A DNA stretch of 64,000 bases from a bacterium (lineage in GTDB: Archaea > Thermoplasmatota > E2 > JACPAO01 > JAHFTW01): positions 181,160-245,159 of the forward strand of contig JAZJZE010000005.1 in assembly GCA_040390065.1 (NCBI GenBank), in the 5' to 3' direction. This document shows positions 7,093-38,219 of the stretch, one piece after another. Below the pieces are notes generated by a model, which saw only the letters and a list, made by a program, of their open reading frames with translations, was not told the origin of the DNA and searched no databases. The position numbers and the translations under genes were made by a program. Position 1 is the stretch's first letter. Each line of letters opens with the position of its first letter.

Positions 7093-7237
7093 GGGCGCGG
7101 CACCCCGGCCGCCATGAAGAAGGGTTTGCTCCTGGGAATTGGGTCCATCCGGGGCCGGACAAGCCATGCCGTTCCAGAAGGCGTGCACGAAAAACTCTAT
7201 CTGCCACCAGGTTCCTCCTTCAGGTGGTGGCCGTCTG

Positions 7238-8962
7238 ATGAGGACCCTCGTTGCTTTCCTGTTGGTCGGGGCGACCCTGACGATTGTCCCGGGGTCCGCC
7301 GACGCCGCGACCAGTTGGTGCGGCACGCAAGGCGTCACGTTGTTCTGTGACGACTTCACAACCAACCAGGGCTGGACGAAGTCCGGCTATGGCCTGCAGC
7401 CCTGCGGCAGCGACATCGGCCAATGCTACAACCCCACGGACTGGCTGAAGTCCACCCGCGGCTGGGACTACGGCGTGTGGACTCCCAATGGTGACAGCAA
7501 CTCGTGGTTCGTGGGCGTGCAGGGCGGCGGCCAGGATCTCGGCTACCTCGCGCCGCAGCCCTTCGGTCTCTTCCTGGGCGGCATTATCGCCGGCAAGGGT
7601 GCGGCTTGGTACGACGTGCGCAACGTTCTCACCTCCCCGCTCATCGACGCCACCGGCGCACAACTCACGACCATGAGCTATGCCGTGAAGGGCAGCTCCG
7701 AAGGCAGCCTGTACGACCGCCTCGAGGTCTGGGTGCAGGTCGCGGGCGGCGGCACCACGATGCTCGGCTCCTACGCTGGCAACCAGATCCAGGGCGACAT
7801 CTGCAACTGCTTCTACACGTTCCCGTTCTCGGCGGCCTGGCTGTCCGGGCAGAAGTTCCAGTTCCTGTTCATCTTCATCGAGGATGCCAACACCGACAGC
7901 GTCACACCTCCGCCATGCCTGGCCGTGTCCGTCCCGACCGGTCAGTCGCCGCCGATTCCGCCCAACGCCGGGTGCCCCGTTGGAGCAACGGTCTGCGCGC
8001 CGGCGCTCTTCAGCGGCTCCGGCTGCCTGTACGGCGGCATGGGCTTCTGGGTTGACGACGTCATCGTACGCAAACTCACGAAGGCGCCCATCGCCCAGTT
8101 CGTCTACAAGTACAAACCCGTGTGCGAAGGCGGCTTCCACGTGGACTTCACGGACGGCTCCGTCGACACCGACGGCACCGTTGCAGCCTGGAACTGGGAC
8201 TTCGGCGACAAGACGACAAGCAACCAGCAGAACCCGTCGCACGACTACCAGTCGGAAGGCACGTACAAGGTCGTGGAAGACATCCAGGACAACGAGGGAA
8301 ATCCTGCCCAGTACATCTTCACGATCATCCTGAAGTACACAAAGTGCCCCGAGCCGGGAAGCACTCAGGAACCAATCCCCATGACGGTGTCCGAAGGCAA
8401 CCAAGCACAGACGCGGCCACCGCATGATGGCACGGACCCCGCCGCTGCAGGCCTCGACACCGACGGCGACGGCGTGCCCGACGCGATCGACCTCTGCCCC
8501 GCGCAGGCGGACGACCAGGCGGACTCCGACGGCGATGGCATCGGCGATGCTTGCGACGTCGACGCGGACAACGACGGCATCATCAATCCACGTGACAACT
8601 GCGCGACGGTCCCGAACCCCGGCCAGGCCAACCTCGACGGCGACGAAGAAGGCGACGCGTGCGACGCCGACATCGACGGCGACGGCGTGCCCGACGCGGC
8701 CGACAACTGCCCGAGCTTGACCAACAAGGACCAGGCGGACCTCAACGCGGACGGAGCCGGCGACGCGTGCCAAATCGTGCGCAACGCCGCGGAGGACAAG
8801 ACCTCCGAAGTCGGCGCATCCGCCGGCACCCGCACCGACTCACAGGCCGGCTTGCCCAGGACGGTGCCGGCGGGATCCCCCACGGCAGGCATTGGCGCAA
8901 TCGTCCTCGGCCTCGGCCTGCTCGCCGTCGCGCTGGTCGTGGCGCTGCGCCGCCGTAGCTGA
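7238..8962 (+). CDS. secreted, membrane-anchored protein with PKD domain and thrombospondin type 3 repeats
   Basis: Signal peptide; WNWDFGD…[11 protein letters not shown] motif; [13 protein letters not shown] Ca-binding repeats; C-terminal TM + RRR. Confidence 0.88.
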
Positions 8963-9015
8963 ACGCCGGTCAAGCGTCAACAACCCTTGAATACCGAGGG
9001 GGTTTGCCCGCGGAC

Positions 9016-9032
9016 GCAGAAGGACATTCTGC
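9016..9032. promoter_or_regulatory. inverted repeat (candidate operator) upstream of RiPP precursor
   Basis: gcagaa-ggaca-ttctgc, between a TATA-like ccttgaatac (~8986-8995) and the GGTGA SD (9039-9043). Confidence 0.35.
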
Positions 9033-9048
9033 CTCAACGGTGAACACA

Positions 9049-9348
9049 ATGGCAATCTTCGGATGGAAAAAGAAGAAGGCAGAGGCAGGCACCACGACCA
9101 CGGCCGCCACGGCGAAGGCTGGAGCCGACATGAGTTGCGGCTCAGCGAAGGGCGGCGACATGTCGTGCGGCTCGGCAAAGGCCGAGGGCGGCGCGGACAT
9201 GAGCTGCGGCTCGGCGAAGGGCGGCATGCCCACCGTCAAGGCGTCCGCCAAGATGACGCAGAAGGCGCCCGCCAAGAGGGCCAAGACGCCGGCAAAGACC
9301 AGCGTCAAGGCGAAGGTCGCGGCCAAGCCTGCATCGAAGAAGAAGTGA
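9049..9348 (+). CDS. putative MNIO (DUF692) precursor peptide with 3x DMSCGSAK and Lys/Ala/Pro-rich tail
   Basis: 99 aa with GGTGA SD. The only Cys residues are in three exact DMSCGSAK repeats (synonymously diverged DNA). Ends 6 bp before the DUF692 gene. Confidence 0.8.
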   Translation: MAIFGWKKKKAEAGTTTTAATAKAGADMSCGSAKGGDMSCGSAKAEGGADMSCGSAKGGMPTVKASAKMTQKAPAKRAKTPAKTSVKAKVAAKPASKKK

Positions 9349-9354
9349 CACGGC

Positions 9355-10200
9355 ATGGGCCGCCTTTCCCCCTCCTCCCTCCCTTTCCTTGGCGCCGGCA
9401 TCGGCTACCGCGGTGACCTCGCCAGGTTCTTTCGTCGGCACGATGCCCGCATCGGCTTCTTCGAGGTCATGCCTGAGCACGTCGTCCACGGCGCTGCCGA
9501 ACGGCGCGCCCGTTTGTTCGAGCACGTCGCCGGCAAGCCCGTCGTGACGCACAGCGTCAGCCTCAGCGTCGGCACGGCGACCGGGGCCGACCTGGTCTTC
9601 GCACGCAGCATGGCACGCATCAACCGCAAGCTCCGCGCGGCGTGGTGCAGCGACCACCTTTCGTTCACGCGCATCGGTGGGCAGAACATCGGCCAACTCA
9701 CGCCAATCCCGTACACGGACGAGGCGCTTCGCCGCGTCGTCGCCAACGTCAAGGCAGTGCAGGCTGCGGTCGGCCTACCGTTCCTGCTGGAGAACATCTC
9801 GCAATACTTCCGGTACCCGCGCACGGACATGACGGAGCCCGAGTTCTTCCGGGAGGTGACCGCGCAAACGGGCTGCGGCATCCTCCTGGACGTCACCAAC
9901 CTGCGCAACAACGCCGCCAACATCGGCGTCAAAACCAAGGCGTACCTCGAGGCCTTCCCGCTCGACCAAGTGGTGCAGCTCCACCTTGCCGGCTCCGAGT
10001 GGATTGGCGGCAAGCTCCTCGACACGCATGGGGCCGCAATCCACCGGGACGTCTGGCGCATGGCAGACGACATCGTGCAGGCGCATCCCGTGCGCGCCCT
10101 CCTCATCGAGCGCGACCAGACATTTGGGCCACTTCCGCAACTGGCTCGCGAGATCCGCCGCGGGGCCACGACCATGCGCAACGCCATGGGGGCTGCCTGA
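9355..10200 (+). CDS. DUF692/UPF0276 multinuclear non-heme iron oxidative enzyme (MNIO)
   Basis: GIGYR, FFEVMPEH, HSVSLSVG, WCSDHLSF, LLENI, LLDVTN, QLHLAG, DTH, IERD: family metal-ligand motifs. Confidence 0.92.
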   Translation: MGRLSPSSLPFLGAGIGYRGDLARFFRRHDARIGFFEVMPEHVVHGAAERRARLFEHVAGKPVVTHSVSLSVGTATGADLVFARSMARINRKLRAAWCSDHLSFTRIGGQNIGQLTPIPYTDEALRRVVANVKAVQAAVGLPFLLENISQYFRYPRTDMTEPEFFREVTAQTGCGILLDVTNLRNNAANIGVKTKAYLEAFPLDQVVQLHLAGSEWIGGKLLDTHGAAIHRDVWRMADDIVQAHPVRALLIERDQTFGPLPQLAREIRRGATTMRNAMGAA

Positions 10201-10937
10201 TGGGACTTGCATCCGTGCAGCAGGCGGTCGCGACTCTCCTCATGGAGGACACCGTCCGGGAGGCTTGGGTCGTGAATCGTTCCGCCTTTGCGCGCAAGTG
10301 GCGCCTGGCGGGACGCGACGCACGCCTAGTGGCCGGGTTGGACGCACGCGACCTGACGTACTTCGCCGCGCACCGCCGCATCGACCGCATGGCGATGCTC
10401 GCGGCCGAGATGCCCCGCAGCGCAAGGACGCTGGGCGAACGCGGCCTCGGCTCGTATTTCCAGCGTCATCCATACGCCCTCGAGGCGACGGCCGCCGAGA
10501 CCGCGCGCTTTGCCGCATGGGCCGCGCGCCATGCGAAGCCGGCCGTCGCGGACCTGGTCCGCTTCGAGATGGCGCAAGCGCGCTTGCGACGCGCCCGCCC
10601 CCGCGCCGCCGCCGCGTCCGTCCACCCGACGCGCGCGCCCGGGGTCGTCCTGCTGCGCCTTGCGCACAGGGTCGACGGCACGCGTCTCCGGCCGGCCAGC
10701 CCGACGTTCTATGGATTGCGGCGACTCTCGGACGAAGTCGCCTGGTTCCGGTACGGCGCCTTGGAGGAAACGCTGCTGCGGACCGCCAACGGCCGGACCG
10801 GCGAAGCGGCATGGTTGCGGCGCGCGGCGAGTGAATGTGACATGGCCATTTCGGCTGCGCGGGCGGCGGCGCGTGAACTGCGCACCGTCGCACTCTTGTG
10901 TCCAACCACGCACAAACGCCAAGGCCCCGCCAGATAA
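10200..10937 (+). CDS. MNIO partner protein (DUF2063-like)
   Basis: TGATG coupling to DUF692. MPRSARTLG…YFQRHP…ETARFAAW…VADLVRFE resembles DUF2063-type partners. Confidence 0.7.
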   Translation: MGLASVQQAVATLLMEDTVREAWVVNRSAFARKWRLAGRDARLVAGLDARDLTYFAAHRRIDRMAMLAAEMPRSARTLGERGLGSYFQRHPYALEATAAETARFAAWAARHAKPAVADLVRFEMAQARLRRARPRAAAASVHPTRAPGVVLLRLAHRVDGTRLRPASPTFYGLRRLSDEVAWFRYGALEETLLRTANGRTGEAAWLRRAASECDMAISAARAAARELRTVALLCPTTHKRQGPAR

Positions 10938-10983: not shown

Positions 10984-12108
10984 ATGCAGACGGAACAGCT
11001 TTGCTGGTCCCCCCAGACCGGCTGGAGCCCCCGCGAAGCCGCCCTGAAGCCGAACCTTGTCCTCGTCTTTGGCAGCCCATCCGCGATGTCCCGCGACGGC
11101 GCCTTCGAGGAATTGCGCCGGCTCTACCCCGACGCCCACCTCGTCGGCTGTTCGACGGCCGGGGAGATTGCCGGCACGCATGTCATGGACGATTCGCTCG
11201 TGGCGACGGCGGTCCGCTTCAAGAAGGCCCACGTGGAAGTCGCACGCGTCAACCTGCGCGATGGCCAGTCGAACGAGGACCTCGGCGCGGCGCTTGCGAC
11301 CAAGCTCCCGAAGGACGGACTGGCGCATGTCCTCGTCTTCTCCGACGGCACCCATGTCAATGGCAGCAGCCTCGTGAAAGGCATGCTTGCGAAATTGCCG
11401 GCCGGCGTGCAAGTGACTGGCGGCCTTGCCGGCGACGGCGCGCGCTTCCAGCAGACGTTCGTCATGGCCGACGCAAGGGCCGCCGACCGGAGCGTCACGG
11501 CCATCGGATTCTACGGCGCGGACTTGCACATCGGCTACGGCAGCCTCGGCGGCTGGGACTCGTTCGGCCCGATTCGCATGGTGACCAAATCCAAGGGCAA
11601 CGTCCTCTACGAACTGGACGGCCAGCCGGCCCTCACGCTCTACAAGAGATACCTGGGCGAACACGCGGCGGCGTTGCCTGCGGCAGGTCTTCTTTTCCCC
11701 CTCAACATCACCTCCAACGGCGGTCCGAGCCTGACGCGCACCATCCTGGCGGTCGACGAGGCAGCGCAGACCATGACCTTCGCGGGGGACATCCCGCAGG
11801 GATCGCGTGCCCAACTCATGAAGGCCAACTTCGACCGCCTCGTCGACGGCGCACACGGCGCGGCGGAGCAGAGCCGTGACCTGCTCGGCGCCGGAGCGGA
11901 ACTGGCGATCCTCATCAGCTGCGTCGGCCGCAAGCTCGTGCTCAAGCAGCGCGTCGAGGAGGAACTGGAAGCGGTGCAGGACGTGCTTGGCCCCAAGGCC
12001 CTCCTGGCCGGTTTCTATTCGTACGGCGAGATTTGCCCGGCAGCACCCCGGGCCAACTGCGAACTGCACAACCAGACCATGACGATCACGACCTTGCGGG
12101 AGACGTGA
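10984..12108 (+). CDS. FIST N/C domain signal transduction protein
   Basis: GCSTAGEI, VTGGLAGD, GNVLYELDGQPAL, ISCVGRK, GFYSYGEI, LHNQTMT. Confidence 0.92.
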   Translation: MQTEQLCWSPQTGWSPREAALKPNLVLVFGSPSAMSRDGAFEELRRLYPDAHLVGCSTAGEIAGTHVMDDSLVATAVRFKKAHVEVARVNLRDGQSNEDLGAALATKLPKDGLAHVLVFSDGTHVNGSSLVKGMLAKLPAGVQVTGGLAGDGARFQQTFVMADARAADRSVTAIGFYGADLHIGYGSLGGWDSFGPIRMVTKSKGNVLYELDGQPALTLYKRYLGEHAAALPAAGLLFPLNITSNGGPSLTRTILAVDEAAQTMTFAGDIPQGSRAQLMKANFDRLVDGAHGAAEQSRDLLGAGAELAILISCVGRKLVLKQRVEEELEAVQDVLGPKALLAGFYSYGEICPAAPRANCELHNQTMTITTLRET

Positions 12109-12192
12109 CGGCCATGCCAGAGGTGGCGTGCGCCGGCTCGTCGCCTGGCCGCGACCTCATGCGCTTTTGGCCGGGCGACCAGTGAGGTCAAC

Positions 12193-14058
12193 GTGCACAA
12201 GCTTCTCGAGCGTCAACTCAAGAAGCACTTCGGCAGCCTGGAGGCAGTGCCGGCCGACCTTGCGCCGGTCCTCGACCAGATTGACCGCTCCTACACGGAA
12301 GCCGACGCCGACCGGCGGCTGGTCGAGCGGTCCCTCGAACTCACGTCCGGCGAACTCCTCGAGCGCAATTCCGCCCTCACGGCCGAACTGGAAAACCGGA
12401 CCTACACGGAGAGCTTGCGCTCGGCCATCCTGGACTCGGCGCTCGACTGCATCATCCTCATGGACCAGCAAGGTATCGTGCGCGAATTCAACCCGGCCGC
12501 CCAGCGGACCTTCGGATTCACGAGGGAACAAGCCGTTGGCAAGCGGCTGGCCGAGCTCATCATCCCGGAGAAGTACCGCGCGGCCCATTCAGCTGGGCTG
12601 CAGAAGTACCTCGCCACCGGCGACGGACCGGTCCTGCACAAGCGCATCGAGATCGTGGGTCTGCGCGCCGACGGGAGCGAGATTCCTGTCGAGCTTGCCA
12701 TCATCCCATTCAAGGCGGCTGGGCAGGCCATGTTCGCCGGATACCTTCGCGACCTGTCCGACCGGATGAGGGCCCAGGAAGAGATCCGCCGCCGTACCGC
12801 CACCGTGCAGCTCCTGCAGCAGGTGCCGCTCTTGGCCAACGAGGCGGATTCCATGGACGAGGCGGCCCGGCTGTGCCTCGAAAAGGTCTGCGAGTACACC
12901 GGCTGGCCTGTGGGCCACGCCTACTTCGTCAACGAGGCGGACACCGAGATGACGTCGCATGGCGTCTGGCGTTTGCCGCCGGGCCTCGAGTTCGAAGCCT
13001 TCCGTACGGTGACGGAGGCGACGACGCTTGGGCCGGGTATCGGCCTTCCGGGGCGCGTGTGGGAGAGCCGCAAGCCCGCGTGGATTCCGGACGTGATGAA
13101 GGACAACAACTTCCCGCGCGCCACGCGGGCCCAGGCCATCGGCGTGCACAGCGCCTTCGGCATCCCTGTCCTGGTGGGTCACCGCGTGCTCGTCGTCCTG
13201 GAGTTCTTCTCCGACCACATCCGCGAGCCCGACGAGGAACTCCTGACCGTCATGGCCAACGTGGGCGAACAGCTTGGCCGCGTCCTCGAGCGCCGCCGGG
13301 CGGAAGCCGAACTCAAGGCCGCCTACCAGCAGTTGCAGGAGGTGGACCGCGCACGCATCCAGTTCATCAACACCGCCGCCCATGAGTTGGGCACACCCCT
13401 GACGCCGATCAAGCTGCAAGTGGAGATGGTGAAGAACCGCCTGGACGCCCACGCCGAACCGCAGCAACGCAAGAGCGTCGAGATCCTGGAGCGAAACGTC
13501 AGCCGCCTGTCCCACCTCGTGAAGGACCTCCTTGACTCGGCCCGCCTGCAGACCGGCCAGCTCCAAGTCGTGCCGCAGACCCTGGACATCCACCAGGAAG
13601 CCGAACGCGCCGTCGAAGCCTACCGGCAGCCCGCCGCCGCAGCCGGCGTCCGCTTGACCCTTGCCCCGGGACGCCCCATGGCAATCCTGGCGGACGTGCG
13701 GCGCATCGGACAGGTCCTCGACAACCTCCTCTCCAACGCCGTGAAGTTCACTCCGCACGGCGGTGCGGTCCGCGTCGACGTGGAACGCACCGGCTCCTTC
13801 GCCCGAGTTTCGGTGCGTGATGGCGGCATTGGCCTGCGGCCCGATGCCATCGCCAAACTTTTCCAACCTTTCAGCCAGGTGCACGACACGATGCAGATCA
13901 CGCAGCCTGGCACGGGCCTCGGGTTGTACATCAGCAAGGGCATCGTCGAGGCCTTGGGTGGCGACGTCGGCTGCACCTCTCCCGGTCTCGGCAAAGGGTC
14001 GACGTTCTGGTTCACGCTGCGCCTCGCCGACCAAACCGCCGCCGCCAATCCCAAATGA
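12193..14058 (+). CDS. PAS-GAF sensor histidine kinase
   Basis: PAS (FNPAAQRTFG…RADGSEIPVEL), GAF (GLPGRVW), H-box AAHELGTPL, N-box NLLSNAVKFT, GTGLGLYI. Confidence 0.93.
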   Translation: MHKLLERQLKKHFGSLEAVPADLAPVLDQIDRSYTEADADRRLVERSLELTSGELLERNSALTAELENRTYTESLRSAILDSALDCIILMDQQGIVREFNPAAQRTFGFTREQAVGKRLAELIIPEKYRAAHSAGLQKYLATGDGPVLHKRIEIVGLRADGSEIPVELAIIPFKAAGQAMFAGYLRDLSDRMRAQEEIRRRTATVQLLQQVPLLANEADSMDEAARLCLEKVCEYTGWPVGHAYFVNEADTEMTSHGVWRLPPGLEFEAFRTVTEATTLGPGIGLPGRVWESRKPAWIPDVMKDNNFPRATRAQAIGVHSAFGIPVLVGHRVLVVLEFFSDHIREPDEELLTVMANVGEQLGRVLERRRAEAELKAAYQQLQEVDRARIQFINTAAHELGTPLTPIKLQVEMVKNRLDAHAEPQQRKSVEILERNVSRLSHLVKDLLDSARLQTGQLQVVPQTLDIHQEAERAVEAYRQPAAAAGVRLTLAPGRPMAILADVRRIGQVLDNLLSNAVKFTPHGGAVRVDVERTGSFARVSVRDGGIGLRPDAIAKLFQPFSQVHDTMQITQPGTGLGLYISKGIVEALGGDVGCTSPGLGKGSTFWFTLRLADQTAAANPK

Positions 14059-19510: not shown

Positions 19511-20434
19511 ATGGAACAGACCGTGCCTGAAGCCGCGGACGCAATCCGCACCATGCGTGTGCGCGGCGCCGCTGCCATCGCGTGCCTTGGCGCCACGACG
19601 CTTGGGCACCACGTAGCCGGCTTGGCCGGGGGCCTGCCCGCCGTGCATGCGGGCGCCCGCCGCGCAGCCGGCATCCTGTTTGCGACGCGGCCGACCGCCG
19701 TGAGTCTGCGCAACGGCCTGGGCGCGGTCCTTGCACCGGTTCTTGCGGCGACGGACGCGGACGCGGCGCGGGCTGAGGCCCCGGTCGCGGCCAACGCGTT
19801 CGTTGCGGCCGTGGACGCTAGTGGGCAAGCCATCGCCGAACATGGCTCGAGCCTCCTCGCCGCGGGCGGGGCCGTCCTCACGCATTGCCACTCCACGACG
19901 GTCATCGACGTGCTGAGGCGGGCCCAGGCACGCGGTGCGGACCTGCACGTCTACGCGACCGAGACGCGCCCGTTTCGCCAGGGCCTCGTGACCGTTCGCG
20001 CCCTGCACGACGGCGGTGTGCCGTGCACGCTCATCGTCGACTCCGCGGTGTCGCACGTGCTCGAGACGAAGGCCATCCGGTGGGTCCTCGTCGGCGCGGA
20101 CACGGTCGCGGCGGACGGCACGCTGTTCAACAAGGTGGGGACGGCGGGGGTCTGCGCGCTGGCGCAGCGTCGCGGGGTGCCCGTCCACAGTGCAGCTGGA
20201 TTCTACAAGTTCACGCGCCAACCGCCCGGGGCAATCCCGATTGAGGAACGCGCCCCGTCGGAGGTCGTCCCGGATTCCGATGTCCCTCCTGGCGTGGCCG
20301 TCTTCAACCCCGTCTTTGACCGGACGGCACCCGGCCTGCTGACCTCGTACATCACGGAGGCCGGCCCACGCACTCCCGGCGAAGCCGTGCGGCAAGCGCT
20401 TGGCCGCCTCCCTGCATCGGAGGCACTCGCATGA
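19511..20434 (+). CDS. ribose-1,5-bisphosphate isomerase (eIF-2B-like fold)
   Basis: MRVRGA, TRPTAVSL, THCHS (catalytic Cys), ETRP..QG, VGAD (catalytic Asp), NKVGT, NPVFD; coupled to RuBisCO gene. Confidence 0.92.
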   Translation: MEQTVPEAADAIRTMRVRGAAAIACLGATTLGHHVAGLAGGLPAVHAGARRAAGILFATRPTAVSLRNGLGAVLAPVLAATDADAARAEAPVAANAFVAAVDASGQAIAEHGSSLLAAGGAVLTHCHSTTVIDVLRRAQARGADLHVYATETRPFRQGLVTVRALHDGGVPCTLIVDSAVSHVLETKAIRWVLVGADTVAADGTLFNKVGTAGVCALAQRRGVPVHSAAGFYKFTRQPPGAIPIEERAPSEVVPDSDVPPGVAVFNPVFDRTAPGLLTSYITEAGPRTPGEAVRQALGRLPASEALA

Positions 20435-21636
20435 AGGACGCCGTCATCGCGACGTACGAACTTGCCGGGGAATTCCCGCTGGAGGACTGCGCCCGCGTCG
20501 TCGCCATGGAGCAGTCGACCGGGACCTGGACGCCCTTGGCCGAGCGCCGCGCCTCCATCGAAGACCGCGTCTCGGCGTGGGTCGTGGACACCGACTCCGC
20601 CGCCGGTCTTGCACGCATCGCCTTCCCGTTGGAAATCTTCGAGACCGCCAACGTCCCCGGCGTCCTTTCCGTCATCGCCGGCAACCTGTTCGGTCTCGGT
20701 TCGTTGCGCCAGGCCCGCCTGACGGATGTCGAATTTCCCGCCGCCTTCTCACGCGCATACCCAGGTCCCGCCTTCGGCATCGCCGGCATCCGCAAGGCCG
20801 TGGGCACCGCCTCGTCCGGTCGACCGCACGGGGGCACCATCGTCAAGCCCAAAGTCGGCCTCGACCCCAAGCAGACGGCCGCCGTCGCCAAAGAAGCCGC
20901 CCTCGGCGGCCTGGACCTCATCAAGGACGACGAGACGCTGACCGACCAAGCGTTCTGCCCCCTCGACGAACGTGCGCGCCTCGTGCTCGAAGCCCTCGAC
21001 CAAGCGAAGTCGCAGACCGGCAAGGCCTGCCTGTACGCGGTCAACGTCACGGCGGGCGCCGATACGATCGCTGAGCGTTGGGACCGCATCAAGCCCTACG
21101 GGCCGAACTGCGCAATGGTCGACGTCCTCACCGCCGGCTACGACGCGCTGATGGCCCTGCGGCGCACCTGCAACGTCCCCATCCACGTCCACCGCGCGAT
21201 GCACGGCGCCATGACCCGCTCCGCCGACTTCGGCATCGACATGCGCGTCATCGGCCGCCTCGTGCGCCTCTGCGGCGGCGACCAATTGCACATCGGTTCC
21301 GCCACGGGCAAGATGGACCACCCGCGGGACCTTGCCGACCTCGTCGGCGCGCTCAAGGGACCCTGGACCAACCACAAGGCGGTCTTCCCCGTCTCGAGCG
21401 GCGGATTGCACCCGGCCCTCGTACCCGCCGAAGTCGCCGCCTTCGGCAGCGACGTCGTCCTGCAAGCCGGCGGCGGCATCCACGGCCACCCCGACGGCAC
21501 CCGCGCCGGAGCCAAAGCCCTCATGCAGGCCATCGAGGCCGTGCACGCAGGCCGTCCGCTCGACAAAGAGCGCGAACCCGAACTGCAAGCCGCCCTGCGG
21601 AGGTGGAAGGACGAATCCTATGGCTACGGCACCTGA
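20431..21636 (+). CDS. rbcL: RuBisCO large subunit, form III/III-like
   Basis: EQSTGTW, GNLFG, KPKVG, KDDE, HRAMH, HIGSATGKM, SSGG, GGGIHGHP: full carboxylase residue set; 401 aa. Confidence 0.93.
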   Translation: MKDAVIATYELAGEFPLEDCARVVAMEQSTGTWTPLAERRASIEDRVSAWVVDTDSAAGLARIAFPLEIFETANVPGVLSVIAGNLFGLGSLRQARLTDVEFPAAFSRAYPGPAFGIAGIRKAVGTASSGRPHGGTIVKPKVGLDPKQTAAVAKEAALGGLDLIKDDETLTDQAFCPLDERARLVLEALDQAKSQTGKACLYAVNVTAGADTIAERWDRIKPYGPNCAMVDVLTAGYDALMALRRTCNVPIHVHRAMHGAMTRSADFGIDMRVIGRLVRLCGGDQLHIGSATGKMDHPRDLADLVGALKGPWTNHKAVFPVSSGGLHPALVPAEVAAFGSDVVLQAGGGIHGHPDGTRAGAKALMQAIEAVHAGRPLDKEREPELQAALRRWKDESYGYGT

Positions 21637-26567: not shown

Positions 26568-29332
<2,765 letters not shown>

Positions 29333-29335
29333 TGC

Positions 29336-30223
29336 ATGGCAGCACTCTTCGCACCTGTCTCGGAGAAGGACATCACGCGCGCCCTGGTGGGCGAATGGCA
29401 CCGCAAGTTCCAGGAGCACACGGAGTGCGACGTCGTCGTCGTCGGTGCTGGCCCTTCCGGCCTCATCGCAGCTACCGACCTGGCAAAGGCGGGCGCCAAG
29501 GTCATGGTCGTGGAGACGAACAACTACCTCGGTGGCGGCTTCTGGGTCGGGGGCTTCATGATGGCGCCCCTGACCATCCGGGCTCCCGCGCAAAAGGTGC
29601 TCGACGACCTCGGCTGCTCCTACAAGCAAGCCGACGGAGTCCCCGGCCTCTACCTATCCACCGGCCCCGAGGCCTGCAGCAAGGCCATCGCCGCCGCCTG
29701 CGACGCCGGAGTCTTCTTCCAGAACGTCACCAACCTCGAGGACATCGTCCTGCGCGATGGCCCCAACGGCAAACCCCGCGTGGCCGGCGCCGTCATCAAC
29801 TGGAGCCCTGTCGCCTCCCTTCCCAGGCAAATCACCTGCCTCGACCCCGTCGCGGTGGAATGCAAGATCCTCATTGATGCCACCGGCCACGACGCCGCCG
29901 CACTCGGCAAGCTGCGCGACATGGGCCTGGCCGAGATTCCCGGCCACGGCAGCATGTGGATCGAGAAATCCGAAGACCTCGTCGTCGAGAACACCGGTGT
30001 AGTCTACCCCGGCCTCATTGTCTGCGGCATGAGCGTTACCACGGCCTATGGCCTGCCCCGCATGGGCCCCACGTTCGGCGCCATGCTCCTCTCCGGCAAG
30101 AAGGCCGCCAAGGTCGCCCTCGAGGAACTCGCCCGCCAGGAATGGAAACCCAACAAGACGAACGGCAAGCCCATGGTTACCTCCAAGGCCAAGCCGTCCA
30201 AGACCGCCACGGTCCTCAACTGA
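29336..30223 (+). CDS. thi4: thiazole synthase Thi4 (Cys-type)
   Basis: VVVVGAGPSGL, LGGGFWVGG, INW, TCLDP, DATGHDA, PRMGPTFGAMLLSG. Confidence 0.95.
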   Translation: MAALFAPVSEKDITRALVGEWHRKFQEHTECDVVVVGAGPSGLIAATDLAKAGAKVMVVETNNYLGGGFWVGGFMMAPLTIRAPAQKVLDDLGCSYKQADGVPGLYLSTGPEACSKAIAAACDAGVFFQNVTNLEDIVLRDGPNGKPRVAGAVINWSPVASLPRQITCLDPVAVECKILIDATGHDAAALGKLRDMGLAEIPGHGSMWIEKSEDLVVENTGVVYPGLIVCGMSVTTAYGLPRMGPTFGAMLLSGKKAAKVALEELARQEWKPNKTNGKPMVTSKAKPSKTATVLN

Positions 30224-34317: not shown

Positions 34318-35090
34318 TTGGCTCGCGCCTTGGTCCTCGGCGCCGGATTCGGCGGCATCAGCGCCGCCCTTGAGTTGCGCCGATTGCTTGACCCCGAACA
34401 CGAGGTCGTCCTCGTGGACGACTCCGCAAGCTTCCGGATGGGCGTGGGCAACCTGTGGATCCTCGATGGCCGCCGCAAGATTGGCGAAGGGGTGCGTCCC
34501 CTGGCCTTGCTTGGCGCCAAGGGCATCCAGGTGCGACGCGGGCGAGTGGACCGCATCGACGTGGCGGCCCGCAGCGCCGTAGTGGACGGCAAGGAACTGG
34601 CCTCCGATGGCATCATCATCGCATTGGGAGCCCGTTTGGCACCGGAGGCGACGCCCGGATTCGCCTCGACGCACAACTTGTACGAGGCGTCGGGGGCGGC
34701 CTCCTTCGCGCAAGCCCTTCAGAGCTTCGCGGGCGGACGAGTCCTCATCCAGGTCTGCGGGCTGCCCTTCCGTTGCCCGCCGGCACCCTACGAAGCAGCT
34801 CTCATCGCGGCCGACGTGCTCAAGCGGCGCGGCGTCAAGGCCGAGATCCACCTTGCCACGCCGGAACCACACCCTCTGCCTGTAGCGCCGCCCGAGTTCG
34901 GAAACCGCCTCCTCCCGCATCTCCAGGCGGCAGGCATCACGTACCATCCCGGATGCAGGCCAACGGAATTCGAGGGCGGACGAGTCGCATGGGAGAATGG
35001 CGGCACGCAAGCCTTCGACCTAGCGGCGGCCGTTGCGGTCCACCAGGCCCCAACCGTCGTCGCCACCACGGGGCTCGCAGGGCCCTCCTT
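34318..35090 (+). pseudogene. 3'-truncated sulfide:quinone oxidoreductase / FCSD-family flavoprotein
   Basis: ggagg RBS + TTG; VLGAGFGG, IIALGA, FRCPPAPYE. Homology ends at GLAGPS; no second FAD motif (T…V.AIGD); frame then reads integrase antisense to 35361. Confidence 0.75.
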
Positions 35091-36227
35091 CATCTCGCGT
35101 TCCCGGCGCGAGGGGAGCATCTTCTCCGCTTCGGGCGTAAGAGGGGCACCGCACGGCTTGCAGAAGAGAGCCTCAGCCCGATTCTCCTTTTCGCAGCGGG
35201 CGCACTTGAGCGGTCGGAGGCCCATGTCCTCGGCGCTCTTGGGAACCTTGACTCCCCACGATGCCAAGAGTCGCGTTTGGGCGTCATCGCGTGAGAGGTG
35301 GACGTACGTGGCGCTTTGCTCGCTGGTGTCGCTCCAGCCATACACGAGATTCATCGCTTGACCATCGAGGCCGCGCTTGGCTGCCGCGGTGGCGGAAGTA
35401 TGCCTGAAAAGGTGCGGATAGACCCGCTTCTTGATGCCCGCTTCCTTGGCGACGCGCTTGACGAGGGCGTACGCAGTCTGGTAGCCCATTCGGGCGTGCA
35501 TGTTCCGGTTGCTCTTCGAGTAGCACAAGGGCGCGTCGGGATCGGTGCGCATCTGGTGGTCCTCGAGCCAATCTTTGAGGTGCTCGGCGGCCTTGAAGAT
35601 GCGAAGCGGGCGCGCCCCCGTCTTCAGCCCGTCGGCGTCTTCCGGCATGCGCAGCAGGTAACCGAATGCGTCTGGCTCGACACCGCCCATGTCGACGCTC
35701 AACAGTTCCTCGGCCCGAGGGCCGGCCTCGTACAGTCCAGCGATGATGAAGCGCTCCTGGCTGTCGCGGCACTTGCGCAGCATCGCCACGAGTTCCTCGG
35801 GCGTAATGAGGTCCTCTTGCCGCAGTCGCTTCTTCGACGGGCGCGAGACCTTGAAGCGCTCGAACTCGGGTGGCGTCTCCTTCTCGTCCAACTTGTGGAG
35901 CCACCGGAAGAAGGCTCGCAAAACGATGTAGGTCTTGTAACGGGTGCCCTCCGCCTTGTGGGAGATGCTGGCGAAGAACGCCACGACGTCTTCCCGCTTC
36001 AGGCGCCGCACCGAGCGGCTTCCGACCCACCGGCCGAACCGGCTGAACTCGTCGGCGTCCGCGCCGAGCGTGCTGCCGTCCAGTTTCTTGCCGCCCGCCT
36101 TGCGCTCGGTCAGGTAGGTCTCGAACTCCTTGCGGTTCGGCTTGTGGTTCACCAGATTTAGGTGGTCCATTGCGACGCCCCAGAGCTTGTCTGCGGGCAG
36201 TTTCGTGTAGTAACTCAACGGGGTCAT
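34788..36227 (-). CDS. tyrosine recombinase/integrase with C-terminal Zn ribbon (3' end fused to SQR antisense)
   Basis: GPRAEELL, LKTG, YPHLFRH, GW, ATYVHL; CARC…CKPC; gaggag RBS. Confidence 0.9.
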   Translation of the reverse strand: MTPLSYYTKLPADKLWGVAMDHLNLVNHKPNRKEFETYLTERKAGGKKLDGSTLGADADEFSRFGRWVGSRSVRRLKREDVVAFFASISHKAEGTRYKTYIVLRAFFRWLHKLDEKETPPEFERFKVSRPSKKRLRQEDLITPEELVAMLRKCRDSQERFIIAGLYEAGPRAEELLSVDMGGVEPDAFGYLLRMPEDADGLKTGARPLRIFKAAEHLKDWLEDHQMRTDPDAPLCYSKSNRNMHARMGYQTAYALVKRVAKEAGIKKRVYPHLFRHTSATAAAKRGLDGQAMNLVYGWSDTSEQSATYVHLSRDDAQTRLLASWGVKVPKSAEDMGLRPLKCARCEKENRAEALFCKPCGAPLTPEAEKMLPSRREREMKEGPASPVVATTVGAWWTATAAARSKACVPPFSHATRPPSNSVGLHPGWYVMPAAWRCGRRRFPNSGGATGRGCGSGVARWISALTPRRLSTSAAMRAAS

Positions 36228-36357
36228 CTCCTCAGATGGCCCATATGAAGGTTCCACGCCCGTTCCCATCGGGAAAAGCGATTTGATTCAGGGTTAATAG
36301 CGGGGATACGACCCCCCTCTATCACAGTCCATACCGCCCCCTTCAGGAGGCGGCGTG

Positions 36358-36657: not shown

Positions 36658-37063
36658 CCCCCCAACTTCCACCGCGGTTCCCTCGATGACAACGGACCGG
36701 TACTGGATCCAGGCCTGGGCCCCGCAGGCGGACCGGAACGGCGGCCCAAGGGTTGGCAAGTGGATTGTCACGGTGGACGAGGCAGACCTCGATGCGGCAT
36801 GGCGCACGGTGAAATCAGCGCTCCAGGCGGGCACGCTTGGCCCGTCCGCCAAAGCCCGGACGTCTGTTCCTCTTCCCTTCATCCAGGCCGACGGTAAGTC
36901 GGTGATCTGCGTCTACACGCATGACTTCCAGGACGTGCGCGATCGGGAACGCATAGGGCATGCACTTGTGCGATTGGGGTTCGGCCATCTGGGTTACAAG
37001 ACGGACGAGCAAAGCCTGCGCGACTGGCAGCAGGAATGCGGCACGCGTTGGGGCTGGTGCTGA
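36650..37063 (+). CDS. DUF1917 (eIF4E-like fold) protein
   Basis: GKW…DAAWRTV…AK…VICVYTHDFQD…LGF..LGYKTD. Confidence 0.8.
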   Translation: MSDPPTSTAVPSMTTDRYWIQAWAPQADRNGGPRVGKWIVTVDEADLDAAWRTVKSALQAGTLGPSAKARTSVPLPFIQADGKSVICVYTHDFQDVRDRERIGHALVRLGFGHLGYKTDEQSLRDWQQECGTRWGWC

Positions 37064-37064
37064 C

Positions 37065-38219
37065 ATGTCCTTCTTCAGTTGCAAGAGCCGTGACGACTGC
37101 TGGAAGTACTTCGACCGCCACCTCGAGGCCATCGAGCCAGGAAAGCGGACCAGTGCCCGCGCGTACCTGCTGGAGCGCGAAGAAAACGTGGAGCTCGGAA
37201 CCATCGGCAGCTACCTGACCCACATCAAGGCCTTCGGCATCTACCTAGCGGAAAAGCCGTGGAAAGACGCGACGCGCGACGACGTCATTGGGCACATCAA
37301 GTCGGCCGCCGGCCGCCAGGGCCGCGTTGGCCGCCGTCACCCGAAGAACGGACAATCCCTGGGCCAGTACACCAAGTATCAGCGCATGGTGATGTTGCGC
37401 GAATTCTACAAGTGGCTGTACGAAACGGACGAAATGCCCCAGCAGTTCCGCCGCATGCCGTTCAGCAAGCCCAGCATGGAGGAGCAGTCGCAAGCCCGCG
37501 AGGACCGCCTTACACAGCCCGAGATCATGGACATGCTGGCGGCGACACAGGACAAGATGGAGCGGGCGTTGGTGATGCTCCTCCTGGATTCCGGCTTCCG
37601 TGCCGGTGAGGCGGCTGCCTTGGATATCCGCGACGTCACCTTCGACGACGTGGGCGCCAAGATCATGCACTCGCGAGAAGCAAAGGGCCTCAAGACCGCG
37701 CGGCGCAGGGTACCCACCAGGGTGACGCTCGCGGCGCCGTACCTTCGCGACTGGATTGCCATCCATCCGCGCCGCCTCCACCTGGACTCCCCAATCTTTG
37801 TCAGCCGGAGCAATCGCAACCACCTGGAACGCTTGGGCTCCGCGGGCGTGTGGAGCATCATCACGGTCCTCGCCCGCAAAGCGAAGTGCCGCCACATCCA
37901 CCCCCACATGTTCCGCCACACGGCGGCCAGCATGCGCGCGGGGGATGGCTGGAACGAGGAGATGTTGCGCCTCCACTTCGGATGGTCAAAGGGGAGCGAC
38001 ATGCCCAGTCTGTATGCACACGTCGAGCAGGACTATGACTCGTTCGCGCTGCGGCGCGCCGGCCTGCCTGTCCCAGTGAGCAAGGCGCAGTGGACCCTGC
38101 AATGCCGCAACTGCAAGGTGGACAGCCCCGGGGATGCCTACTTCTGTGGCGGATGCGGCCGGCAACTCCACGAGGCCGACGCGCGCAAACCAACAGGCGA
38201 GCCGGCGGAGGTGGGTTGA
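37065..38219 (+). CDS. tyrosine recombinase/integrase with C-terminal Zn ribbon
   Basis: SGFRAGEA, LKT, IHPHMFRH, FGW, SLYAH; CRNC…CGGC. Confidence 0.92.
   Translation: MSFFSCKSRDDCWKYFDRHLEAIEPGKRTSARAYLLEREENVELGTIGSYLTHIKAFGIYLAEKPWKDATRDDVIGHIKSAAGRQGRVGRRHPKNGQSLGQYTKYQRMVMLREFYKWLYETDEMPQQFRRMPFSKPSMEEQSQAREDRLTQPEIMDMLAATQDKMERALVMLLLDSGFRAGEAAALDIRDVTFDDVGAKIMHSREAKGLKTARRRVPTRVTLAAPYLRDWIAIHPRRLHLDSPIFVSRSNRNHLERLGSAGVWSIITVLARKAKCRHIHPHMFRHTAASMRAGDGWNEEMLRLHFGWSKGSDMPSLYAHVEQDYDSFALRRAGLPVPVSKAQWTLQCRNCKVDSPGDAYFCGGCGRQLHEADARKPTGEPAEVG

Follow-up and report, generated by a model that had tools for sequence, protein, structure and literature searches.

Peptides modified by MNIOs (oxidative enzymes that depend on multinuclear non-heme iron; DUF692) are among the largest and fastest-growing groups of RiPPs (peptides made by the ribosome and modified after translation). 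Closest to the case considered here are the systems for the Lys-Cys captophorins oxazolin, fontiphorin and gonophorin (HvfABC, FonABC), for the bufferins (BufABC; DUF2282 and Buf_6/12Cys precursors) and for 3-thiaglutamate/pearlin (TglHI). Captophorin systems combine an MNIO, a PME1 partner and a Cys-rich precursor (10.1101/2025.11.18.689057), and a 5-thiooxazole has been assigned in bufferins, oxazolin and fontiphorin (10.64898/2026.07.17.739211; 10.1101/2025.11.18.689057). Here we describe an operon of three genes, totaling 1.9 kb, which encodes a Cys-repeat peptide, an MNIO and a partner protein in a member of the archaeal phylum Thermoplasmatota. It lies in a stretch of 64,000 nucleotides (the window; C5:181160-245159 of assembly GCA_040390065.1, which comprises 2.68 Mb in 50 contigs and is 89% complete with 0.3% contamination), and we hold it to be, with high probability, a genuine archaeal MNIO-partner-substrate system.

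In gene order (precursor, MNIO, partner), and in a precursor composed of numerous short Cys units in tandem, with Lys near the Cys and a small residue after it, the operon resembles HvfABC and FonABC. It differs from them in its host, which is archaeal rather than a member of the Pseudomonadota, in its repeat unit, K-S-C-(G/S/A)-(S/T) rather than the EGKCG of Hvf/Fon-type precursors, and in a partner that lacks the DUF2063 signature; also absent are a Sec signal peptide and a DoxX gene, and the product is probably cytoplasmic. Of the three components of a captophorin system, the MNIO and the Cys-repeat precursor are found here, whereas a PME1 partner is not. The bufferins share the same three-gene core, and their copper buffering is our model for functional inference, but bufferin precursors consist of folded domains that bear a signal peptide and are exported; the precursor here, in contrast, is a disordered repeat peptide with neither a DUF2282 domain nor EGKCG repeats (no match in a Pfam/NCBIfam scan). 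Likenesses to TglHI are that neither precursor has a signal peptide and neither partner a DUF2063 signature; the Cys modified by TglH, however, is single and C-terminal, as against the 3-15 internal Cys found here. Adjamnio-I, compared by description only, likewise has no signal peptide, many Cys (8-21) and the order precursor, MNIO, PME-type 2, with precursors of 122-293 residues as against 44-154 here (PMC12452194). In more general terms, a short precursor gene stands beside a modifying enzyme and a protein containing a RiPP recognition element (RRE), the arrangement by which RiPP systems are recognized.

MNIO systems have been described "throughout the eubacterial phylogenetic tree" (PMC12452194). 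The survey of Antoine and co-workers took in archaeal genomes, and the MNIO distributions reported in its main text are eubacterial only (PMC12452194); the captophorin survey was restricted to Pseudomonadota, and the word 'archaea' is absent from its main text (10.1101/2025.11.18.689057). An earlier note on this DNA, made from the sequence alone, had called the system undescribed, and in the literature we likewise found no archaeal MNIO system described in the main texts searched. Automatic annotation already names the MNIO in some archaeal metagenome-assembled genome records, and assigns the peptide to no family. What is new here is the host domain and the precursor family, and probably the cellular location. 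An archaeal enzyme clade with its own precursor family means that the MNIO family reaches a second domain of life. To our knowledge, RiPP-like systems known from archaea are few, and the present operon adds one.

Precursor family, enzyme and partner

The precursor peptide starts with MAIFGWKKKK, contains 20 Lys, 23 Ala and 3 Cys, and closes with a Lys/Ala/Pro-rich tail ending in KKK. Each of the Cys (3/3) falls within an exact DMSCGSAK unit, as the earlier note had claimed. Pairs of the 24-nt repeat units differ at 2-5 positions, in every case synonymously, and one of the differences is a switch between AGY and TCG serine codons that requires several base changes; the note's view that the peptide sequence is under selection is thereby borne out. 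No hydrophobic segment was found in the peptide (the highest 12-residue Kyte-Doolittle mean is 0.34), which argues that it has neither a signal peptide nor a membrane anchor, and its structure model is disordered, with a predicted local distance difference test score (pLDDT) of 0.22.

The same design recurs wherever the orthologous enzyme could be followed. DNA upstream of the clade MNIO was read in five congeners, five metagenome contigs and three genomes from two other families, and a repeat peptide lies directly upstream of the enzyme in 13/13 loci with such DNA available, as the earlier note had expected of homologous DUF692 loci; the architecture is thus beyond chance. Upstream DNA was searched for family members because most are evidently not called as genes in protein sets: a profile search for the precursor in a set of 5.8 billion proteins found only 3 proteins, which yielded two additional family peptides. 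All 15 members share an N-terminus of the form MG(A)-hydrophobic-hydrophobic with a Lys run within ten residues, and a signal peptide was found in none of the 15, their N-termini being all of the same kind. They are 44-154 residues long, carry 3, 4, 5, 6, 7, 11 (in G005) or 15 Cys units, and close with a basic tail ending in KKK, KAK, KTK, QKK or KKE.

The sequence around the Cys is tightly constrained. Among 80 Cys in 13 peptides, position -2 is Lys (71) or Met (9), position -1 is Ser (79) or Ala (1), position +1 is Gly (53), Ser (24) or Ala (3), and position +2 is Ser (65), Thr (14) or Ala (1), so that the residue following the Cys is small in 80/80 cases; the seven Cys of the two profile-search peptides obey the same pattern. 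The MSCG core proposed in the earlier note therefore did not survive the comparison, since the conserved unit is [K/M]-S-C-[G/S/A]-[S/T], with Met at -2 and Gly at +1 as local variants. Repeat subtype tracks both enzyme subclade and host family, with KSCGS in family f1, KSCSS in f32 and KSCST in f15, and the MSCGS of the window is a variant within the KSCGS subtype of f1. This natural series (KSCGS, KSCSS, KSCST; 3-15 units) offers substrates for studying the sequential processing of repeats by an MNIO-partner pair.

Subtype co-variation, tight gene coupling and an RRE-type partner together make it very likely, as far as sequence can tell, that the peptide is the substrate of the MNIO. Were it instead an unmodified, metallothionein-like or nucleic-acid-binding basic peptide encoded beside an MNIO that acts elsewhere, one could point to its Lys/Ala/Pro-rich tail, which we take to resemble basic nucleic-acid-binding tails, and to the fact that modification is so far unobserved. 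This explanation is very improbable, given that peptide and enzyme occur together in 13/13 loci from three archaeal families with their subtypes co-varying, that a 6-bp gap couples the two genes, and that an RRE-type partner implies a peptide substrate; the order precursor, MNIO, partner is, moreover, canonical (PMC12452194).

The second gene product matches PF05114 over model positions 1-258 of 263 (E 8.4e-75; 251.8 bits against a cut-off of 25). Residues H66, H101, E146, D179, N182, H210, D223, H225 and E252 are invariant in 69/69 clade members and 55/55 outgroup rows, and D254 in 69/69 clade members, in agreement with the intact metal-ligand motifs that the earlier note had reported; by homology, the invariant His, Asp, Glu and Asn positions are candidate iron ligands. 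In 3BWW, the counterparts of N182, D223 and H225 lie in the motifs DVNN and DTHG, which contain site-3 ligands required for HvfB activity (10.64898/2026.07.17.739211). To judge by these residues, the enzyme looks active. The residue following the catalytic Asp, Q255, was considered as a marker of the clade and rejected, as it is present in 67/68 clade members but also in 4/4 actinomycete and 29/45 other MNIOs.

Among the NCBIfam models, the BufB equivalog (NF050167) scores best and the HvfB equivalog (NF003818) second, with ApyH (109 bits), MbnB (52) and ChrH (40) lower. Of the solved chains, 3BWW comes closest (E 1.6e-32), with TglH (4.2e-22) and MbnB (1.5e-12) behind it, and 3BWW is 72% identical to HvfB (10.64898/2026.07.17.739211). 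By these comparisons the MNIO is nearest to the thiooxazole-forming enzymes, yet a subfamily of its own, because it scores below the cut-offs of both equivalogs; the earlier note's comparison with the Hvf/bufferin types thus holds as kinship and not as membership. In the set of 5.8 billion proteins, 74 are 51-76% identical to the window MNIO and the next best at most 44%. In a tree of 55 rows, including 18/74 of these close homologues and every second of P0078-P0122, the window MNIO falls within a group of 21 rows with 100% support in the Shimodaira-Hasegawa-like approximate likelihood-ratio test (SH-aLRT) and a stem of 0.57 changes per column. The MNIOs of DUF2282-like context (L040-L042), a Nocardia/Actinosynnema group and a second type of archaeal MNIO all fall outside this clade.

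Two of these neighboring groups have gene contexts of their own. The nearest relatives in cultured organisms, at 37-43% identity, are those of Nocardia spp. (L025-L033) and Actinosynnema (L024), which follow a different short precursor whose leader (...DPYLFERV...) is conserved and whose C-terminal core (...GVLPCCSCGGCCRCYA) is rich in Cys. The second archaeal type, 34-40% identical to that of the window, occurs in the same archaeal family (L019 in G011, L020 in G017, L021 in G012 and L034 in G042) with its own partner-like gene downstream; a few hundred bases 3' of that gene stand small Cys-x-x-Cys open reading frames (for example ...ETASCSPCILITV... and ...ELAGCRPCIQV...), followed by a conserved secreted protein, an arrangement that may represent another archaeal MNIO system.

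The partner protein is recognized by fold rather than by family models. The window partner has no Pfam match, and PF09836 was matched by none of the six members of its orthologue alignment (0/6) even at E≤10; weak matches to the RRE model PqqD were obtained in 2/5 partner orthologues (best E 0.0012), and a profile search of the PDB sequences with the partner alignment gave 0 matches. An AlphaFold2 model built from six orthologues (mean pLDDT 88.5) consists of eight helices followed by a three-stranded sheet and three helices. In a Foldseek comparison of this model with the PDB, the only matches below 1e-3 are chain A of TglHI (8hi7_A, E 3.9e-6; 8hci_A, 4.2e-6) and NGO1945 (3dee, 6.6e-4), with the RRE domains PqqD, TbiB1 and PbtF ranking lower; chain A of 8hi7 is read as TglI by exclusion, since it is chain D that corresponds to the DUF692 protein. 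Searching 1.84 billion representatives with a profile yielded 147 partner relatives, and 45/147, hand-picked from below the first 20 ranks, were scanned, among which PqqD was matched in 9, DUF2063 in 3 and NGO1945_C in 3. Model and remote homology point to a DUF2063-plus-RRE architecture without the DUF2063 signature, so that the 'DUF2063-like' label of the earlier note is supported by fold and remote homology and not by any PF09836 match among the alignment members. When a complex was predicted from alignments of the MNIO, the partner and the precursor, the score was 0.02, the mark being 0.32, which gives no verdict either way.

Partners of PME-type 2 follow the MNIO directly, lack the DUF2063 signature and resemble NGO1945 (3dee) or TglI (8hi7) in structure (PMC12452194). 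The present partner, with its TGATG overlap with the MNIO gene and its Foldseek matches, answers to this description, and not to that of PME-type 1, which is characterized by DUF2063 (PF09836). Precursors without a signal peptide correlate with PME-type 2 partners (PMC12452194), and the present pairing of the two fits that correlation.

Proposed chemistry and cellular location

In the mechanism that we propose, the RRE domain of the partner would bind the conserved N-terminus of the peptide and offer the repeats to the MNIO, which would oxidize each Cys in turn with O2, working in the mixed-valent diiron state, dependent on the partner, that has been described for HvfBC (10.64898/2026.07.17.739211). 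The most probable product at each Cys would be a 5-thiooxazole, as with BufB, HvfB and FonB, at a cost of 4 Da per Cys. This assignment follows from the nearest kinship of the enzyme and, being made by analogy, has in our judgment an even chance of being correct. FonB prefers a small residue after the Cys (10.1101/2025.11.18.689057), and the small residue after all 80 Cys matches that preference.

Also to be considered is the same operon logic with another Cys, or Ser-Cys, chemistry, for which an oxazolone/thioamide, beta-carbon excision, a cross-link via the flanking Ser and the Ser/Thr hydroxyls, or an undescribed reaction are candidates. The long, fully supported stem of the clade (0.57 changes per column, 100% SH-aLRT), scores under both the BufB and HvfB cut-offs and a partner that is most like TglI are all in keeping with this, as are Ser at -1 in 79/80 units and Ser or Thr at +2 in 79/80, a constraint for which no link to thiooxazole formation was found in the main texts consulted; many MNIO chemistries are known (10.64898/2026.07.17.739211). 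However, the thiooxazole type accounts for both top curated models as well as for the solved chain closest to the enzyme, and the small residue after the Cys suits the FonB preference. TglH modifies a single C-terminal Cys, whereas all Cys here are internal. Taken together, we regard a different chemistry as a realistic but distinctly less probable alternative to the 5-thiooxazole.

The location of the product is suggested by what does not accompany the operon. A search confined to the slot that the operon occupies, between purT and the DEAD-box helicase gene, found neither a protease nor a transporter in 6 genomes. Because the operon comes with neither a signal peptide nor a linked protease or transporter, retention of the product in the cytoplasm is most likely. 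In that compartment it would serve as a multivalent chelator or buffer of Cu(I) or another thiophilic metal, with a metal capacity set by the number of repeats; such a role in cytoplasmic metal handling, argued by analogy, we put somewhat short of an even chance. For export, or release of the modified peptide as an extracellular metallophore, antimicrobial or signal through an unlinked transporter or protease, it may be said that most RiPPs are exported, that the periplasm is where bufferins and oxazolin act (PMC12452194; 10.64898/2026.07.17.739211), and that the conserved N-terminus could serve as a leader and be cleaved off at a later stage. Yet the peptide has neither a signal peptide nor a hydrophobic segment, the purT-DEAD slot holds no transporter or protease in the 6 genomes, and the varying neighbors (a surface protein with a PKD domain and thrombospondin type-3 (TSP3) repeats, a FIST-domain protein, a histidine kinase) show no conservation alongside the operon, which together make export improbable.

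The host genome offers a setting for such chemistry. A heme-copper oxidase subunit I is encoded at C9:579257-580600, which makes an economy of O2 and copper plausible. An HMA domain (PF00403) and a P1B-type ATPase (TIGR01525) were not found in the 89%-complete genome, although 13/14 and 14/14 control genomes, respectively, have them; within the genus, an HMA domain is present in 3/13 genomes. The relevance of this absence to the role of the operon is suggestive at most.

Several observations weigh against the proposal of partner-guided 5-thiooxazole formation on the repeats and a cytoplasmic, metal-binding product. The MNIO reaches 215.6 bits against the BufB model, whose cut-off is 310, and 180.1 bits against the HvfB model, whose cut-off is 360. 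It is only 33-44% identical to any MNIO outside the clade, so that its chemistry could differ, and the deep nodes of the tree are unsettled (support 44), leaving kinship with the Buf1-context clade unsupported. The best structural match of the partner, TglI, serves a beta-carbon-excising MNIO and not a thiooxazole-forming one. Known 5-thiooxazole peptides are exported, and no precedent for a cytoplasmic one was found in the main texts consulted; a transporter or protease could, for its part, be encoded away from the operon. An anticorrelation between the operon and HMA/CopA proved unsupported, with HMA in 1/6 operon-bearing versus 2/7 operon-less congeners, counts that come from incomplete and mutually related genomes. 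Modification of the Cys and binding of a metal are, finally, proposals drawn from sequence and analogy.

With these points on the other side, the whole chain, from partner-guided 5-thiooxazole formation on the repeats to a metal-binding product in the cytoplasm, seems to us to fall slightly below an even probability. It raises a testable idea, namely that thiooxazole-type metal ligands are used inside cells too, besides the periplasm. A bolder version, which we think possible but rather unlikely, is that in aerobic Thermoplasmatota a non-exported peptide with 3-15 modified Cys (as 5-thiooxazole or an undescribed Ser-Cys-derived group) would act as a cytoplasmic buffer of copper or soft metals, an enzyme-matured ribosomal counterpart of metallothionein in lineages that yielded neither a CopA-type pump nor an HMA chaperone, its capacity adjusted as repeats are rapidly gained and lost. 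If true, the cytoplasmic-buffer reading would provide the first archaeal and the first intracellular MNIO natural product.

Host, synteny and distribution

The archaeal origin assumed in the earlier note is well supported. The small-subunit rRNA (contig C1) scores 1451 bits with the archaeal and 1080 bits with the bacterial model, and the window itself encodes a ThiD-ThiN fusion, Thi4, TrmB- and AsnC-type regulators, a RuBisCO large-subunit homologue and a pyruvate:ferredoxin oxidoreductase. Four members of the enzyme clade are named, and all four carry archaeal labels, Thermoplasmatota in three cases and Halobacteriales in one. That the contig is instead a bacterial contaminant of an archaeal bin, and the system an ordinary bacterial one, might be argued from the 50-contig metagenome assembly, with its rRNA on a different contig, and from the bacterial nature of the nearest MNIO relatives outside the clade. 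However, the order purT, operon, DEAD-box helicase, Sua5 is the same in five independently assembled congeners, which effectively excludes contamination, and the ThiN, Thi4 and TrmB genes in the window, the 0.3% assembly contamination, the archaeal labels of 4/4 named clade members and the occurrence of clade MNIOs in three families of the same archaeal phylum all agree, so that this explanation has only a negligible probability.

Within the genus the operon is present in 6/13 genomes, always between purT (-) and the DEAD-box helicase gene (+), and orthologues were found in 8/401 sampled genomes of the phylum, in three families. With a fixed slot and yet a patchy presence in genus and phylum, the operon is at home in these archaeal chromosomes but dispensable. 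It stands alone in the slot in three genomes (G005, G006, G009), after a FIST-histidine kinase pair in G002, and before that pair and after the PKD/TSP3 surface protein in G000 and G004, the only two genomes in which that protein occupies the slot; in G007 and G008 the slot holds the FIST-kinase pair and the operon is missing. A functional tie to the FIST-kinase pair was considered and rejected, since FIST is found in 3/6 operon-bearing versus 4/7 operon-less congeners, and since G007 and G008 have it in this very slot while lacking the operon.

Operon layout and neighboring genes

The tight linkage described in the earlier note agrees with the anatomy of the locus in its coordinates and junctions (Table 1): 6 bp (9349-9354) separate the precursor stop from the MNIO start codon, and in the following TGATG the final A of the MNIO stop TGA doubles as the first base of the partner ATG.

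Table 1. Operon features, upstream elements and other genes of the window, numbered from its first nucleotide.
Feature	Position	Strand	Description
Precursor peptide gene	9049-9348	+	ATG 9049, TGA 9346-9348; 99 aa; no Pfam/NCBIfam match
Core repeat 1, DMSCGSAK	9127-9150	+	
Core repeat 2, DMSCGSAK	9157-9180	+	
Core repeat 3, DMSCGSAK	9196-9219	+	
MNIO (DUF692) gene	9355-10200	+	ATG 9355, TGA 10198-10200; 281 aa; PF05114
Partner gene	10200-10937	+	ATG 10200-10202; 245 aa; N-terminal helical domain and C-terminal RRE-like winged-helix domain
Box CCTTGAATACC	8985-8995	+	~55-65 nt 5' of the precursor start codon; A/T-containing
Palindrome GCAGA-N7-TCTGC	9016-9032	+	~26 nt downstream of the CCTTGAATACC box
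Shine-Dalgarno-like GGTGA	9039-9043	+	5 nt ahead of the precursor ATG
PKD/TSP3 protein gene	7139-8962	+	607 aa; directly 5' of the operon
FIST-domain protein and PAS-GAF histidine kinase genes	10984-14058	+	47 nt 3' of the partner gene
RuBisCO large-subunit homologue gene	20431-21636	+	
Thiamine cluster (ThiD-ThiN, ThiC, Thi4)	26568-30223		archaeal type
Tyrosine-recombinase (Phage_integrase) gene	34788-36269	-	
Tyrosine-recombinase (Phage_integrase) gene	36960-38219	+	

Upstream of the precursor gene, conserved elements emerge from an alignment of seven upstream regions. In the CCTTGAATACC box the columns C..CTT.AATAC are invariant or nearly so, and the box is, judged from its position alone, a candidate archaeal TATA/promoter element. 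Both arms of the palindrome, GCAGA and TCTGC, are invariant in 7/7 aligned loci; it lies approximately where an archaeal transcript would be expected to start and is a candidate operator or 5'-end RNA hairpin. A regulon for this palindrome was rejected, because its 3 sites in the 2.68-Mb genome are about the number expected by chance. At a spacing equal to that of the Shine-Dalgarno-like motif, orthologous loci have GGTGA, GATGA or GTGA.

The protein encoded directly 5' of the operon has an N-terminal hydrophobic segment, a PKD domain, thrombospondin type-3 repeats and a C-terminal hydrophobic anchor. Transcription of the operon may, at this locus, read through into the FIST and kinase genes, which lie on the same strand. 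Farther downstream, the two tyrosine-recombinase genes face away from each other and adjoin a metallophosphoesterase gene and a 514-aa open reading frame without an assigned family, a region that may be an integrated element.

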